Part shown: positions 1,440-6,561 of the stretch, in pieces
Numbering within the stretch: position 1 is the first letter of the stretch
How the letters are laid out: each line of letters starts with the position of its first letter
Assembly: GCA_043813875.1 (NCBI GenBank)
Contig: JBDRKP010000043.1
Location: 1 to 14,909 of the forward strand
DNA: 14,909 bases
Direction of reading: 5' to 3'
From: an archaeon
Lineage (GTDB): Archaea; EX4484-52; B79-G9
The notes under the pieces: generated by a model
What the model saw: only the letters and a program-made list of their open reading frames with translations
What the model was told of the DNA's origin: nothing
The model's database searches: none
Position numbers and translations under genes: made by a program

Positions 1440-2294
1440 TCACAAAGACAGCGCAACAAGCCCCAACAAAACAGAAACAATACCCACATTCTGGTTGAAA
1501 TCGACCCTCTCGCGATAAAGAATCCTTGCAAGAACAATGCTCACCGCAGGCGAGGCAGAACCGATAGGCGCGACAATCGCCGCATACTCAAAAGACACGC
1601 CCGCTCCATAAGAAAGATACGCGAGCGCATCAAGGACAGCGACACATGCGACAAAAAACAGGACACCCTTCGGGAACGAGACATCCTTTCCGGAAGAGCG
1701 CGAATACGCAATCAGGCAAAAGGTCATGACGACACCAGTCAAAAAGATCGGCAGAAACCATCCGATCTCCTCGACCAGGACATCTATGACCACAAAATCA
1801 ACACCAAAAGCAAGCGCCGCAACCACAGCATACTTAACGCCTGCCGCATGATTCTCAAGCTTCAAAAGATCCCTCCACCTGAAAGAAACAAGAACAGCGC
1901 CAGCAATAACAAGAACTACTCCGAAACCCTGCAAAAGCGCGAGCCTCTCGCCAAGAAAAGCAAGACTCAAAAAGACAGTAACAACAGCCCAGCACGAGGC
2001 GACAGGCATCACAATTGAAACTTTCCCTTCCTTAAGACTCCTGTAGAAGGCAAGATTGGCAACAACCCCAAGCACTGCAGAAACGACAACCAACGCAAGC
2101 GTAAACAAAGAAAAGACAGGCAACTCAAAGAAAAAAATAAAAATAGGCAGCAAAAACAGCACAAAGATTATCTGGCTCCAGAAAAATGCCCTGAACACAT
2201 CGCATCCCTTAACGGCTTTCGATATAAAGAAATCCGAAAAACCCCAACAGAACATGGCAATTACGCCGAAAATCACGCCAAAAGAGCCATCCAT
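1440..2294 (-). CDS. EamA/DMT family transporter
   Basis: 284 aa, about 10 TM helices in two repeats; AMFCWGFSDFF start, FYRSL..GKVSIVMP, LAFLGERL and ILYRER motifs typical of EamA repeats. Confidence 0.9.
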   Translation of the reverse strand: MDGSFGVIFGVIAMFCWGFSDFFISKAVKGCDVFRAFFWSQIIFVLFLLPIFIFFFELPVFSLFTLALVVVSAVLGVVANLAFYRSLKEGKVSIVMPVASCWAVVTVFLSLAFLGERLALLQGFGVVLVIAGAVLVSFRWRDLLKLENHAAGVKYAVVAALAFGVDFVVIDVLVEEIGWFLPIFLTGVVMTFCLIAYSRSSGKDVSFPKGVLFFVACVAVLDALAYLSYGAGVSFEYAAIVAPIGSASPAVSIVLARILYRERVDFNQNVGIVSVLLGLVALSL

Positions 2295-2808: not shown

Positions 2809-3750
2809 ATGAAGACTGCGACAATGACAAGACAAAATACTCACATAAAGCAGGACATCACAGAACTCATAGGAAACACGCCGATGATAAGGATAAAAAA
2901 GATTCTTCCAGAGGGCGCAGCCGAAGTCTACGCCAAACTCGAATGGTACAACATCGGCTCATCCGTAAAAGACCGCATGGCCCTTCGACTCATAGAGAAA
3001 GCAGAAAAAGACGGGCGAATCACGAGTGGAAAAGTCATCCTCGAGGCAACATCAGGCAACACCGGGATAGCATTGGCGATGATCGCGGCAGCAAAAGGCT
3101 ATAAAATCGAGCTCGTCATGCCCGAATCCGTAAGCATCGAAAGAAGAAAGATAATCAGGGCATACGACGCTAAACTCACACTCTCCCCGGGCGCAAAAGG
3201 AACCGGCGGCGCAGTCGAACTGAAATACCAGATGCTGAAAGAAAACCCAAAAAAATACGTCGACATCGACCAGTTCCGTGACCCAGCAAACATCGAAGCC
3301 CACTACGACACCACAGCAAAAGAGATACTCGACCAGACCGGCGGCGACCTCGACATGGTAGTCGTAGGCATCGGTACCGCAGGAACAAGCGTCGGCATCT
3401 CAAAAAGGATGAAAGAGCACAACCCGAAAATAAAGATAATCGGAGTGATACCAGAACTAGGATCGGCAATACAGGGATTGAGAAACCCCTGCGAAAACTA
3501 CCCCACGCAGCTCTACAAAAGTGGATATTTCGACGAAATCGTAGAGATAAAAAAAGAAGAGATACCAAAAACCATCGAAATAACACGCGAATTAGCCAAA
3601 AAAGAGGGACTCCTCGTTGGCATGAGCGCAGGCGCCGCGATGTACATAGCAAAAAGAAAAGCAATAGAGCTAGGTCCAGGCAAAAAGATAGTCACAATAT
3701 TCCCGGACAACGGCTTCAAATACCTAAGCACATCTCTCTTCGAAGAATAA
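2809..3750 (+). CDS. cysM: PLP-dependent cysteine synthase (CysK/CysM family, CysM-like)
   Basis: IGNTPM, SVKDR (PLP Lys54), EATSGNTG, GIGTAGT, GMSAGAA and PDNGFKYLST motifs; IQGLRN loop; SD GGAGG at 2795-2799. Confidence 0.92.
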   Translation: MKTATMTRQNTHIKQDITELIGNTPMIRIKKILPEGAAEVYAKLEWYNIGSSVKDRMALRLIEKAEKDGRITSGKVILEATSGNTGIALAMIAAAKGYKIELVMPESVSIERRKIIRAYDAKLTLSPGAKGTGGAVELKYQMLKENPKKYVDIDQFRDPANIEAHYDTTAKEILDQTGGDLDMVVVGIGTAGTSVGISKRMKEHNPKIKIIGVIPELGSAIQGLRNPCENYPTQLYKSGYFDEIVEIKKEEIPKTIEITRELAKKEGLLVGMSAGAAMYIAKRKAIELGPGKKIVTIFPDNGFKYLSTSLFEE

Positions 3751-3778
3751 AACAGAAATCAAAAAGGAGGTAAGAAAA

Positions 3779-3832
3779 ATGGAAACAATAATGGGTGAAT
3801 ACCGGTGCAATCAAAGAACACACTATACCTGA
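3779..3832 (+). CDS. Possible 17-aa ORF METIMGEYRCNQRTHYT overlapping the SerK-like start (or the frameshifted true N-terminus of that gene)
   Basis: Strong SD AGGAGGT at 3765-3771, 7 nt before ATG 3779; this ATG is out of frame with the 3795 ORF. Confidence 0.3.
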   Translation: METIMGEYRCNQRTHYT

Positions 3833-4274
3833 TATAACAGAACACAACATAAAATTAACCAACATAAAAGACCTGAAACCACACGAACAAATAAACCCCA
3901 AGAGACTACTGGAAGTCAAAAAAAGTATAATAATCGAAGGCCTCAAATACCCGATAGTAGCAGACAAGAAAACCAACATAATTCTTGACGGTCACCACAG
4001 GTTCAACGCCTTCAAAAAACTAAACATAAAAAACATCCCCGTCTACTATGTCAACTATCTGGATGACAAAATAATTCTTGACACTTGGAGCAGGCAAAAA
4101 ATAACAAAAGAGGACGTCATAAACAAAGTAGAATCAGGCGGACTATTCCCAGAGAAAACAACCAGGCACATGCTCGCAACACAAGACGGGCCAACACACA
4201 TATCCGAAGCGCTTCCAAAAATAGATCTTGACATAACCCGCCTGACAAAAAACAGGTATGAACCATTCCAATAA
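3795..4274 (+). CDS. ParB/Srx-fold protein, short SerK/SbnI-like free serine kinase homologue
   Basis: LKPHEQ, ILDGHHRF, NYLD...TW and TKEDV...G.LFPEKTTRH motifs match the SerK/SbnI family; directly downstream of the cysteine synthase. GTG start uncertain. Confidence 0.8.
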   Translation: MNTGAIKEHTIPDITEHNIKLTNIKDLKPHEQINPKRLLEVKKSIIIEGLKYPIVADKKTNIILDGHHRFNAFKKLNIKNIPVYYVNYLDDKIILDTWSRQKITKEDVINKVESGGLFPEKTTRHMLATQDGPTHISEALPKIDLDITRLTKNRYEPFQ

Positions 4275-4299
4275 AAAGATTAGAAATATTATAAAGAAC

Positions 4300-4758
4300 A
4301 TGAAAGGAAAAATCCACTCAATCAACATAAGCGCAACAAAAGGCATCCCAAAGACCCCCGTAGCAGCAGCCGACGCGATAGCAGGCTGGGGCCTAAAAGA
4401 CGATTCCCATGCACAGCCAGGCATAAGACAGGTCAGCCTCCTTGCCATGGAGAGCATAGAAAAACAGAAAGAATGCGCAAAAATAAAGAAAAAAGACATC
4501 GACCTAAAGCCCGGCGACTTCGCAGAAAACATAACGACAGTCGGCATAGACCTGAAAAACCTACCCATAGGCACGAAAATAAAAGCAGGAGATGAAGTCA
4601 TCCTAGAGATATCAAAGATCGGAAAAGAATGCCACATCGGCTGCGCCATATTCCAGAAACTAGGGAGTTGCATCATGCCAAAAGAAGGCATATTCGCAAA
4701 AATAATCAAAGGCGGCACGATAAAAAAAGGCGACACACTCGAGACAATAGACAAATAA
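4300..4758 (+). CDS. MOSC domain protein (stand-alone putative sulfur carrier)
   Basis: GKIHSINIS..KG..K, G..DDSHA...RQVSLL, PGDFAENITT, GKECHIGCAIF...GSCIMPKEGIFA motifs. ATG 4300 preferred over 4258 because the family N-terminus starts there. Confidence 0.9.
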   Translation: MKGKIHSINISATKGIPKTPVAAADAIAGWGLKDDSHAQPGIRQVSLLAMESIEKQKECAKIKKKDIDLKPGDFAENITTVGIDLKNLPIGTKIKAGDEVILEISKIGKECHIGCAIFQKLGSCIMPKEGIFAKIIKGGTIKKGDTLETIDK

Positions 4759-4778: not shown

Positions 4779-5252
4779 TCAAAGAACTTTAGACATCCTG
4801 ACCACACGGATGCATCCTCCCTGCAAACCAGTCTCATACACCCTATCCTCAACAAAAACATAACCATTCCTTCTATAAAAACCGACACCATTAAGAGAAG
4901 AATCAAGAACCAGCTTAAAGACGCCCGATTCTCTGGCGCAATTCTCCAAAAAATCAAGCAGCTTCTTCCCGAGTTTTTTGCCCTGGAACTTCGGATCCAC
5001 AAACATCCCCTTAACCTCATCACGATTCAGGCCAGCGCACCCAACCACCCTGCCTTCAAGAGAAAGCACAAAAAATTTCCATCCCTCAGTATACTTCATG
5101 AAATTCTCTCCCGAATACAATGACACCCAATAACGCCTCTCATCATCATTATAGACATCCCTAGAGCAAACCTCAATGCATTTCCCAACAAGGCGGGACA
5201 CATCATCTATATCTCCACCAGCCATTTCACGTATATCAGACAATCCATCCAT
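4779..5252 (-). CDS. GNAT family N-acetyltransferase
   Basis: MFVDPKFQGKKLGKKLL acetyl-CoA motif A and NGVGFYRRNGY motif B. ATG 5252 preferred over TTG 5267. Confidence 0.88.
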   Translation of the reverse strand: MDGLSDIREMAGGDIDDVSRLVGKCIEVCSRDVYNDDERRYWVSLYSGENFMKYTEGWKFFVLSLEGRVVGCAGLNRDEVKGMFVDPKFQGKKLGKKLLDFLENCARESGVFKLVLDSSLNGVGFYRRNGYVFVEDRVYETGLQGGCIRVVRMSKVL

Positions 5253-5334
5253 ACAAAACAATGGCAATCCAGCATTGAAATATTTATTGACACAAATAAC
5301 AAAATAATAGAAAATTTGAAATATTTAACAAAAA

Positions 5335-6030: not shown

Positions 6031-6561
6031 TCAAACAAACCTCTTCATTTCGCGCAAAAAACAATCGTAAAGCTCCCCATCAACAGCACAAAGCACAACC
6101 TCAAAACCAGCATTTTTCTCCAAAAAACGCGAAACCACAGAAACCATCGCATGCGCCGCCTCCCTCTTATCGACACCCCCGACACCCGTACCCATACCCG
6201 GAAACGCAATCTTCTTAAGCCCTTTTTCCCGAGCAAGCAAAAGCGCCGCCAAGACCGCCTTCCTCACATTAAGAACCCCTATCCTCTCAACAGGCCCGAC
6301 CATAGTAGGCGCATGAATCACATACCTCGAAGCCAGCCTTCCCGCCGTAGTCATCACAGCAGAACCGACAGCAATCGGCGCCTGCAAAACCGCCTCGTCC
6401 TCGATCATCTCACCACCTATGCGCCTGATCGCAAGCGCAACCCCGCCGCCCATAGTGCCAGCTGAATTCGCAGGATTGACAATAGCATCGACCTTCTGTT
6501 CAGTGATATCTCCCTTCACAACAGAAACATCTTTCAGAATACCACCTATTAAACAGCTCAA
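6031..6561 (-). CDS. Macrodomain protein (AF1521/MacroD-like ADP-ribose binding or hydrolase)
   Basis: VVKGDIT, DAIVNPAN, GGGVALAI, YVIHAPT and IAFPGMGTGVGG motifs. Start codon uncertain. Confidence 0.93.
   Translation of the reverse strand: MSCLIGGILKDVSVVKGDITEQKVDAIVNPANSAGTMGGGVALAIRRIGGEMIEDEAVLQAPIAVGSAVMTTAGRLASRYVIHAPTMVGPVERIGVLNVRKAVLAALLLAREKGLKKIAFPGMGTGVGGVDKREAAHAMVSVVSRFLEKNAGFEVVLCAVDGELYDCFLREMKRFV

Follow-up and report, generated by a model that had tools for sequence, protein, structure and literature searches.

Two neighbouring genes in the genome of an archaeon (GTDB lineage Archaea; EX4484-52; B79-G9) fairly probably encode a two-enzyme route that makes cysteine from phosphoserine, a short SerK-like kinase providing the phosphoserine and a CysM-type enzyme using it, while the MOSC gene that follows them would be an unrelated neighbour of the Moco type. 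The genes lie in the window, by which we mean the whole stretch of 14,909 nucleotides that was analysed; it is contig C43 of a genome (G000) of 1.64 Mb that is 91.5% complete. In the mechanism we propose, the kinase would phosphorylate free L-serine to O-phosphoserine with a nucleotide as donor, and the PLP-dependent CysM-type enzyme would then swap the phosphate for sulfide, most simply free sulfide, to yield cysteine. Together the two genes would form a module leading from serine to cysteine in two steps without a serine acetyltransferase. The proposal is based on homology and fold, on conserved motifs, and on the linkage and phyletic patterns of the genes; from these we infer the substrates as well as the sources of phosphate and sulfur.

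Table 1. Genes and spacers of the locus, in positions of the window
Feature	Position	Strand	Details
cysM-type gene	2809-3750	+	313 aa, ATG start
cysM-kinase spacer	3751-3794	+	44 nt; GGAGG at 3766-3770; read from the sequence
Short SerK-like ('mini-SerK') gene	3795-4274	+	159 aa, GTG start
kinase-MOSC spacer	4275-4299	+	25 nt; read from the sequence
MOSC gene	4300-4758	+	152 aa, ATG start inside listed ORF 4258-4758

The original prediction described three co-oriented genes with short gaps between them, and the sequence confirms that arrangement (Table 1). The three open reading frames can be taken as genuine genes rather than chance ones because there are profile or PDB matches for all of them. 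In a search of sequencing runs, one independent contig covers the kinase-MOSC junction (4076-4351), and no independent contig was found across the cysM-kinase spacer among the short Logan contigs searched. Logan contigs carrying pieces of the locus with identical sequence were found in three groundwater DNA runs. A 153-nt contig matching 4298-4450 derives from an RNA library; it is proof of neither transcription nor an operon. A small Cys-rich ORF at 2615-2770, considered as a candidate carrier, was set aside because neither the fetched loci nor the genome yielded a relative.

The predicted kinase and synthase

The middle gene encodes a probable short relative of SerK, a predicted free-serine kinase forming O-phosphoserine. 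It matches the SerK family model NF053625 at model positions 15-101 of 244 (E 2.8e-16), its 59.4 bits falling well short of the cut-off (380), and the SerK structure 5x0b in the PDB (E 2e-10). The PDB alignment falls into two pieces, residues 22-116 on SerK 21-121 and residues 99-129 on SerK 199-229, from which it follows that about 77 SerK residues (about SerK 122-198, in the C-terminal domain) are absent; with its 159 aa, the protein does not have the full SerK architecture of about 242 aa with a complete C-terminal domain. In its AF2 model (pLDDT 87.3), the top six Foldseek matches are SerK structures (TMq 0.71-0.72, rmsd 2.2-3.6), with 1vk1 and 5x0g the best at 0.72. SbnI follows at about 0.6, and is the second-best match in sequence as well as in fold; ParB and Srx folds reach about 0.4. 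Normalised to the target, the TM-score against the SerK structures is 0.49. The motifs PHEQ (containing E31), DGHHR (65-69) and KTTRH (121-125) are all present, and E31 aligns with the Glu30 that is mutated in PDB entries 5x0e, 5x0g and 5x0j (E30Q in the last). H30, E31, D65-R69, K105 and H125 are invariant in 52 short-kinase sequences. At E-values of 1e-30 and below, the family counts 353 cluster representatives, with members also fused to NTP-transferase, hexapeptide-transferase, methyltransferase or NAD-binding domains. Longer, fused versions of the kinase did not turn up in a set of 5.8 billion proteins, a result that the search tool itself rates as weak evidence.

The first gene probably encodes a CysM-type PLP-dependent cysteine synthase that would act as an O-phosphoserine sulfhydrylase. 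PF00291 (PALP) is matched over its full length with 224 bits. The best family match is TIGR01136 cysKM, at 323.5 bits near the subfamily cut-off of 344.15 and under it; the scores against cysM (TIGR01138; 316.4 bits, cut-off 394.2) and the cysK model (296.9 bits, cut-off 350.95) are also under threshold. The translation contains the PLP lysine K54 in SVKDR, a TSGNTG loop at 81-86 and a Gly-rich phosphate loop, and R225 sits in a short loop of the CysM type. Over the enzyme's C-terminal 114 aa the alignment to Salmonella/E. coli CysM (2jc3, 2bhs) is gapless, with GLR over GIR, and in the same PDB comparison alignment to CysK-type chains requires gaps. A tree places the protein in a clade of its own phylum with support of 100/99, and its orthologues in two genomes (G014 and G015), 76-78% identical, adjoin cysS. 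Judged by its sequence, it is a predicted cysteine synthase that has been vertically inherited and is intact, with all motifs present. An SbnA-like paralogue, separate from this enzyme, lies on contig C1 of the same genome.

Linkage of the two genes recurs well outside the window. CysK/M is the immediate same-strand neighbour of the short kinase in 21 of 80 loci, downstream in 19 and upstream in 2, with hosts, going by the titles of the records, in the Woesearchaeota (2), Aenigmatarchaeota (1), Micrarchaeota (2), Beckwithbacteria (1) and the Caldisericota/Cryosericum group (15). This one bacterial group accounts for 15 of the 21, so that there are about six independent lineages rather than 21. 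Two genomes of the window's own phylum (G017 and G042) likewise have the pair side by side, and one fusion protein of 582 aa (P0154) joins a mini-SerK (44% identity) and a CysM-type PALP domain (34%) in a single chain. A profile search found no cysE over the cut-off in the window's genome or in any of the 23 others that carry the kinase-synthase pair; among control genomes, 8 of 14 have one. The adjacency and the fusion bear out a link, in several phyla and in genomes without cysE, between CysM-type synthases and this short ParB-fold relative of SerK; together with the missing cysE they suggest that serine is what it phosphorylates. The 24 cysE-free genomes and the adjoining kinase also argue, indirectly, for a synthase preference for O-phosphoserine over O-acetylserine. 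The original prediction had seen neither a serine acetyltransferase nor a MoaD/ThiS-like carrier in the window; both observations hold, and they extend to the whole genome, in which nothing matched cysE over the cut-off or ThiS/MoaD (PF02597).

The other 59 of the 80 loci have no CysK/M neighbour, the kinase standing there among housekeeping genes; together with the varied fusions, this means that the substrate may differ among subgroups. In 7 of the 80 loci a TrpB-cluster protein is encoded no more than three genes away from the kinase, and it was considered as a user of phosphoserine. A scan of one representative showed it to be canonical TrpB (TIGR00263, 632 bits), whose substrate is serine, and we therefore dropped this neighbour as support.

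The MOSC protein and Moco genes

We assign the third product, from its sequence relationships, to the MosC-type MOSC proteins, with a predicted part in Mo/W-cofactor synthesis and not in the cysteine module. PF03473 is the only domain matched (34.9 bits, above the cut-off of 22.7), the MoaC/MOSC fusion model NF011069 is matched in its MOSC half (positions 163-307 of 308, E 5.9e-51), and a sequence search of the PDB returned no match at E 0.01. The gene is the only MOSC gene in the genome, and its product is 45-63% identical to members encoded in MoaA-MoaC-MOSC-MoaB operons. A mosC gene is described in Moco clusters of Geobacter (PMC2700814), and the Geobacter protein, one from Dehalobacter (PMC4751268) and NF011069 fall in the same MosC-type subfamily as the window's protein.

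The relatives of this gene keep company with Moco genes. In 65 of 80 metagenome loci, at least one of MoaA, MoaC, MoaB or MoeA is encoded no further than 3 kb away (40 of the 49 that have at least 600 nt on both sides). In all 12 genomes examined outside the window's genus (g1), namely 11 of 11 Caldisericota and G101, MOSC adjoins MoaC, and where the flanks are long enough the gene order is MoaA-MoaC-MOSC-MoaB; those 11 Caldisericota also carry the kinase-synthase pair, elsewhere in the genome and far from MOSC. Among the 42 genomes of the window's phylum, MOSC occurs in seven and MoaC in seven, all of them in g1. The window's genome, which encodes two AOR-type enzymes, has MoaA-MoaC-MoaB-MoeA on contig C4, where MoaB follows MoaC directly. 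Unlike the MosC of Moco clusters, the gene has in g1 left its cluster and stands beside the kinase. Members of this family would act with MoaA, MoaC and MoaB in Mo/W-cofactor synthesis, and the window's protein would be dispensable for the cysteine module.

These patterns run counter to the earlier proposal that MOSC replaces CysO as the sulfur donor; that it might track with Moco genes instead, which was named there as an outcome that would speak against the idea, is what the neighbourhood and phyletic survey found. Nor does the pair appear to need MOSC: the six DPANN and CPR genomes that carry the pair all lack it, and in g1 it stands beside the kinase in genomes that have no CysK/M (0 of the seven other members of the genus). 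The CHxxC...C cluster on which the proposal was built (C111-H112-x2-C115...C124) is indeed present. It is invariant in 31 of 31 aligned family members, three of them from Moco operons, and is therefore a family trait, with nothing particular to this locus.

The kinase and MOSC genes adjoin each other in the window and in five of the seven other g1 genomes, one of these with a broken kinase gene; in a sixth, a piece of MOSC lies where a contig ends. In one MAG the two read as a single ORF, one base of the stop codon differing from its relatives; the spacer and stop codon were aligned for the window and four genus relatives. We propose that in g1 MOSC came to adjoin the kinase gene and would then have been kept there by descent. 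The adjacency nonetheless counts against the explanation we favour, as it fits chance only through descent within one genus.

Alternative readings

That all three genes form one pathway, with the kinase supplying O-phosphoserine and MOSC carrying a persulfide on its Cys cluster to CysM, strikes us as very improbable. A sulfur-carrier role has been predicted for MOSC domains (Anantharaman and Aravind, 2002, cited by PMC1779556 and PMC4751268), and co-orientation, short gaps, a genome lacking matches to cysE and to a ThiS/MoaD carrier, and a kinase-MOSC adjacency kept in g1, up to a single ORF in one MAG, would all suit such a pathway. However, the single ORF comes down to one base, a CysM-like gene lies within 3 kb of MOSC in only one of the 80 metagenome loci, and on the opposite strand, and the Moco-operon setting, the phyletic pattern shared with MoaC, the family-wide Cys motif, the DPANN/CPR and Caldisericota genomes and the lack of CysK/M in the rest of g1 all weigh against it. 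A variant confined to g1, in which the short kinase and MOSC would be one unit giving O-phosphoserine and activated sulfur (from the Cys-His cluster) to SepCysS genus-wide and to CysM here, is a long shot in our estimation. The adjacency and the single chain in one MAG speak for it, as does the fact that MOSC, MoaC and SepRS all mark g1. If true, the unit would be an undescribed kind of protein sulfur donor for O-phosphoserine-dependent cysteine synthesis.

Two further readings concern the kinase itself. We think it quite unlikely that the ParB-fold protein is something other than a serine kinase (a kinase of another small hydroxyl compound, a nucleotide-binding regulator or a sulfiredoxin-like repair enzyme), its adjacency to CysM then reflecting regulation or other chemistry. 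The score far under the SerK cut-off and the loss of about 77 residues of the C-terminal domain, which count against the explanation we favour, would be accounted for, as would the fusions to nucleotidyl-, hexapeptide- and methyl-transferases and the 59 housekeeping loci; sulfiredoxins have the same fold, with lower scores, and CTP binding is reported for one SerK-like protein (PMC12704722). Six supplementary files of that ParB-fold survey, which may be truncated, contain no MOSC, PALP or SerK entries. Against this stand the best folds, SerK and SbnI, both free-serine kinases and well above ParB and Srx, the invariant catalytic Glu, DGHHR and KTTRH motifs, and the recurrent CysM neighbourhood with its fusion and without cysE. 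It is also unlikely, on our weighing, that in g1 the kinase mainly feeds tRNA-dependent cysteine synthesis through SepRS and SepCysS, with the CysM of this one genome an ancestral leftover of minor importance or an enzyme of other chemistry (sulfide release, or another beta-substituted alanine). The SepRS/SepCysS route, as described by Mukai et al. (2017; PMC5424206), uses free O-phosphoserine as the module would, but in the window's genome its two genes are on another contig (C62), where they are adjacent. Among the seven other g1 genomes SepRS is present in six, SepCysS in four and the kinase in five, alongside the missing CysK/M. The route would be a second consumer of O-phosphoserine in g1, its link to the kinase being suggested by co-occurrence in that one genus; genus g6, however, has SepRS/SepCysS without the kinase (0/4). 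The window's genome also has SerA, so O-phosphoserine need not derive from the kinase, and its CysM is intact and vertically inherited. This reading supplements our preferred explanation more than it excludes it, since O-phosphoserine in this genome could supply SepRS/SepCysS as well as the module.

Comparison with known systems and significance

The SerK of Thermococcus kodakarensis (TK0378) shares with the window's kinase the ParB/Srx fold, the catalytic Glu and the DGHHR and KTTRH motifs, and its route, as described by Makino et al. (2016; PMC5120207), likewise has a CysK/M-family partner and makes serine acetyltransferase unnecessary. It is longer (242 aa against 159, the shorter protein being without about SerK 122-198), and serK is placed outside any operon in that account, whereas the window's kinase gene is directly beside the synthase gene. 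The same paper describes clear SerK homologues only in Thermococcales and Desulfurococcales and ties the route to the heat stability of phosphoserine (PMC5120207). Unlike the hyperthermophilic hosts of SerK, those of the short kinase are DPANN, CPR and Caldisericota of groundwater and comparable sites.

In Staphylococcus, SbnI, a free serine kinase, and SbnA, a CysK-family enzyme that uses O-phosphoserine, work in staphyloferrin B synthesis. By analogy, the window may hold a similar arrangement, in which a SerK-like kinase would supply O-phosphoserine to a neighbouring CysK-family PLP enzyme. SbnI, at about 254 aa, has a regulatory C-terminal part and the product of SbnA is a precursor of diaminopropionate, not cysteine; the window's synthase scores higher against cysKM/cysM than against SbnA (323 versus 202 bits). 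CysM of Mycobacterium tuberculosis is an O-phosphoserine sulfhydrylase that works with the thiocarboxylate carrier CysO. Its structures (3dki, 3dwg and 3dwi) match the C-terminal part of the window's synthase over 111 residues, and if that match is gapless, R225 would presumably fall on Arg220 of the mycobacterial enzyme. CysO is a carrier of the ThiS/MoaD fold, of which none was matched in the genome, and the MOSC fold is different.

The kinase-synthase pair is apparently an undescribed, compact variant of the SerK/O-phosphoserine route to cysteine; no description of the short SerK or of its pairing with CysM was found in the literature searched, outside subscription journals. For genome annotation, a MOSC gene whose subfamily belongs to Moco operons should not be taken for the sulfur donor of the sulfur-metabolism gene that it adjoins. 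The hosts of the pair are small-genome archaea (Woese-, Aenigm- and Micrarchaeota and the window's phylum), CPR bacteria and Caldisericota. If the kinase forms phosphoserine, it would offer enzymology a serine kinase of minimal size, about 130-160 aa, it would fill a gap in cysteine synthesis in metabolic reconstructions of DPANN and CPR organisms, and it would mean that the SerK route is not bound to high temperature.

Gene row and surroundings

The archaeal genome under study (G000; 1.64 Mb in 90 contigs, completeness 91.5%) carries the three genes on contig C43, which forms the entire window and also encodes EF-2, EF-1alpha and S10. The original prediction described three co-oriented genes and took them for one pathway, in which the kinase makes O-phosphoserine and the MOSC protein replaces CysO as persulfide donor to the synthase. 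The coordinates confirm the gene row, with spacers of 44 nt (genes 1/2) and 25 nt (genes 2/3); of the pathway, the cysM-kinase O-phosphoserine module is supported and the MOSC protein as sulfur donor is not.

Table. Coordinates of features in the window (contig C43) and at other loci.
Feature	Location	Strand	Remarks
Gene 1, CysK/CysM-family PALP enzyme	2809-3750	+	PF00291, TIGR01136
Gene 2, SerK-like	3795-4274	+	GTG start; SerK model match
Gene 3, MOSC domain	4300-4758	+	PF03473; MOSC half of NCBIfam MoaC/MOSC fusion model
EamA-family transporter	1440-2294	-	divergent, upstream of the pair
Cys-rich ORF, 51 aa	2615-2770	+	CxxC-x4-C-x6-CxC; GGAGG six bases before ATG
RNA-library contig, 153 nt	4298-4450		run X7, groundwater metatranscriptome
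GNAT	4779-5267	-	
Macro domain	6031-6561	-	
SepCysS	G000 C62, 266-1360	-	536 bits
SepRS	G000 C62, 1508-3025	-	438 bits, above cut-off
CysRS	G000 C62, 6260-7663	-	
Second CysK-family protein, 317 aa	G000 C1, L006 460-2436		36% identical to gene 1 product
Threonine-synthase-like protein, 611 aa	G000 C80, L005 793-2628	-	N-terminal Cys-rich stretch
Kinase-MOSC ORF, 352 aa	L011 463-1521 (G007 C155)		one MAG
Split kinase	L111 82-1620 (G008 C51)		409-aa ORF between the pieces

The small ORF with five cysteines ends 38 nt upstream of cysM and has no relatives in the fetched loci or elsewhere in G000. Along the whole plus strand of the window the AT skew ranges from about +0.2 to +0.48 and the GC skew is mostly negative, also over the well-supported minus-strand EamA, GNAT and macro genes, so that genes on the two strands have opposite base make-up; the contig-wide AT skew (0.38) is the highest among the 90 contigs (median 0.12). 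The sole RNA-library piece starts 2 nt ahead of the MOSC start codon, too little for a claim about transcription or a start site.

A probable short SerK-like kinase and the neighbouring cysteine synthase

The 159-aa protein matches the SerK model well below its cut-off (59 bits against 380; E 2.8e-16), and among solved structures it hits the SerK entries 1vk1 and 5x0b of Pyrococcus and Thermococcus in two separate segments, at E about 1e-10. The first segment pairs kinase residues 22-116 with SerK 21-121 and the second pairs 99-129 with SerK 199-229, so that some 77 residues of the C-terminal domain of SerK have no counterpart. E31 aligns with the glutamate mutated in the SerK E30Q and E30A PDB entries and, like H30, I63-R69 (ILDGHHR), Y88, K105 and H125, is invariant in a 52-member alignment of the short family, in which K121 and T122 are almost so. 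The AlphaFold model (pLDDT 87.3) retrieves SerK structures at the top (TMq 0.71-0.72) and SbnI next, with ParB, Noc and sulfiredoxin at only about 0.35-0.4. Searched by profile, 1.84 billion cluster representatives yielded 353 relatives at E <=1e-30 and 1880 at E <=1e-10, and most of the best 150 representatives are 125-170 aa long. Alignment, invariant residues, predicted fold and this typical length together indicate that the protein belongs to a short branch of its own within the SerK/SbnI kinases and is not a fragment. Several of the best-scoring representatives (P0148-P0155) contain two matched stretches, and short SerK-like domains are fused to nucleotidyl-transferase, hexapeptide-transferase, NAD-binding and SAM-methyltransferase domains in P0185, P0198, P0199, P0207 and P0271; the family may have several substrates.

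Gene 1 scores 224 bits for PF00291 and 323.5 bits for TIGR01136, slightly below the cut-off of 344. Its C-terminal 114 residues align gaplessly with CysM of Salmonella and E. coli (GLR over GIR), whereas CysK-type chains require gaps; M. tuberculosis CysM matches along this stretch too, over 111 residues, and a gapless match would put R225 on its Arg220. A maximum-likelihood tree built from 33 CysK/M proteins groups the synthase with others of its phylum in one clade (support 100/99), next to the kinase-linked protein of G017 and those of G014 and G015 (76-78% identical), where cysS adjoins the gene. Judged by this placement, it is an inherited cysteine synthase rather than a recent import.

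The linkage of kinase and synthase recurs well beyond the window. A one-genome-per-species scan found 278 kinase relatives, and in the best 80 of these 278 loci CysK/M is the immediate same-strand neighbour in 21 (19 downstream, 2 upstream): two in Woesearchaeota, one in Aenigmatarchaeota, two in Micrarchaeota, one in Beckwithbacteria and 15 in the Caldisericota/Cryosericum group, one of the last labelled Deferrimicrobium yet inside that clade in the CysK/M tree. As kin are not independent, these loci amount to about six lineages. The pair is adjacent also in G017 and G042 among 42 genomes of the window's phylum, and a natural protein, P0154 (582 aa), is a single chain in which a CysM-type PALP domain (34% identical) is joined to a mini-SerK (44% identical) and to a second, degenerate copy of it. 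No cysE exceeds the cut-off in any of 23 genomes with the pair (best 44 bits; controls 8/14). The original prediction had seen neither serine acetyltransferase nor MoaD/ThiS in the window, and this extends to all of G000, where the best cysE match reaches 38 bits against a cut-off of 210.65 and ThiS/MoaD has no match. On the functions we infer for its two proteins, the most likely reading of cysM plus short kinase is a compact route to cysteine through O-phosphoserine.

The Caldisericota pair is often flanked by NifS and NifU ahead of it and an EamA-family transporter behind it; in seven loci (L033, L035, L038, L039, L040, L049, L062) this transporter lies downstream on the opposite strand. 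The window's EamA protein has no tblastn match to these at 1e-4, so the two are not close homologues. Exporters of cysteine and O-acetylserine belong to the EamA family.

The MOSC gene and the molybdenum cofactor

In favour of the MOSC protein belonging to the same pathway, the four closest relatives (kinase 64-69% identical) keep kinase and MOSC adjacent, and in one MAG the two form a single ORF, through either a genuine fusion or an error in sequencing; in a DNA alignment three relatives have TAA or TAG as stop codon where this MAG reads TAT, and a single-base change is weak evidence for fusion. These four relatives have no CysK/M upstream, and none of the seven other genomes of the genus has CysK/M (best matches are other PALP enzymes, E 5e-14 or worse), so the kinase-MOSC pair persists without the synthase. 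In G008 the kinase is split by an ORF on the opposite strand (residues 25-68 and 117-159 of the query, about 1.3 kb apart) and the adjoining MOSC gene is intact. The macro-domain and GNAT genes beside MOSC are kept in the same relatives too, and the whole neighbourhood is thus kept together, which descent within one genus would predict.

Outside the genus, MOSC follows molybdenum cofactor (Moco) genes instead. It matches PF03473 (34.9 bits) and the MOSC half of the fusion model (E 5.9e-51), in a family with at least 7956 matches, many bacterial members being 55-65% identical. The CHxxC...C cluster, which the original prediction named for the donor, is invariant in 31/31 aligned members. Eleven of the 21 genomes that carry the kinase-synthase pair have this MOSC, all of them Caldisericota, and none of the six DPANN and CPR ones does; in all 11 it adjoins MoaC, in the order MoeA-MoaA-MoaC-MOSC-MoaB as far as flanks extend, on another contig than the pair or distant from it. 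The sole MOSC bearer among 50 further kinase-bearing genomes (G101) likewise has it beside MoaC. Among 80 metagenome loci (47-69% identical), MoaA, MoaC, MoaB or MoeA lies within 3 kb of MOSC in 65 (40/49 with >=600 nt on both flanks), the kinase in one, by its equal length probably the same contig as locus L014, and a CysM-like gene in one, on the opposite strand. Within the phylum MOSC and MoaC have the same distribution: G000, 6/7 other genomes of its genus and 0/34 outside it. G000 encodes two AOR-type enzymes and, on C4, MoaA-MoaC-MoaB-MoeA, with no MOSC between MoaC and MoaB. In Geobacter, mosC is counted among the genes of Moco clusters (PMC2700814). The window's MOSC gene is therefore assigned, as a MosC-type gene, to Mo/W-cofactor synthesis, and its place here, in one genus, is happenstance.

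MoaE (PF02391), the molybdopterin synthase large subunit, is missing from all eight genomes of the genus and from the 11 Caldisericota genomes with the MOSC-containing cluster, and is present in 11/11 controls with MoaC; the genomes examined that pair Moco genes with a MosC-type MOSC thus lack this subunit. Some ThiS/MoaD match occurs in 5/5 Caldisericota genomes. The Geobacter paper gives moaE as absent from Geobacter metallireducens (PMC2700814), and MOSC proteins may stand in for molybdopterin synthase according to a Dehalobacter paper (PMC4751268).

Phosphoserine demand and the spread of the proposed module

In G000 SepRS adjoins SepCysS, with cysS close by, giving both tRNA-dependent and direct routes to Cys-tRNA in addition to CysM; SerA is also encoded. 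SepRS and SepCysS are confined to two genera of the phylum, that of G000 (6/7 and 4/7 other genomes) and g6 (2/4 each), the latter having SepRS without the kinase. Twenty other genomes of the phylum give strong CysK/M matches, and all lie outside the genus of G000. Since SepRS requires free O-phosphoserine, co-occurrence suggests that its demand explains why a genus that lost CysM retains the kinase; g6, and SerA in G000, weaken the link.

For the second CysK-family protein the top models are SbnA (320.6 bits, cut-off 350) and cystathionine beta-synthase; its gene is preceded by a radical SAM/SPASM gene, and the protein may also use phosphoserine. The C-terminal part of the threonine-synthase-like protein (609 aa in genus relatives) resembles the end of 2-isopropylmalate synthase.

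Literature searches, with few subscription journals and incomplete supplements, returned no description of a short SerK, alone or paired with CysM, nor of MOSC-dependent cysteine synthesis, of which the original prediction likewise knew none. The Discussion of a 2016 paper places clear SerK homologues only in Thermococcales and Desulfurococcales (PMC5120207). Read in this way, the cysM-kinase module represents a shortened, apparently undescribed form of the SerK pathway, spread far more widely than that description.
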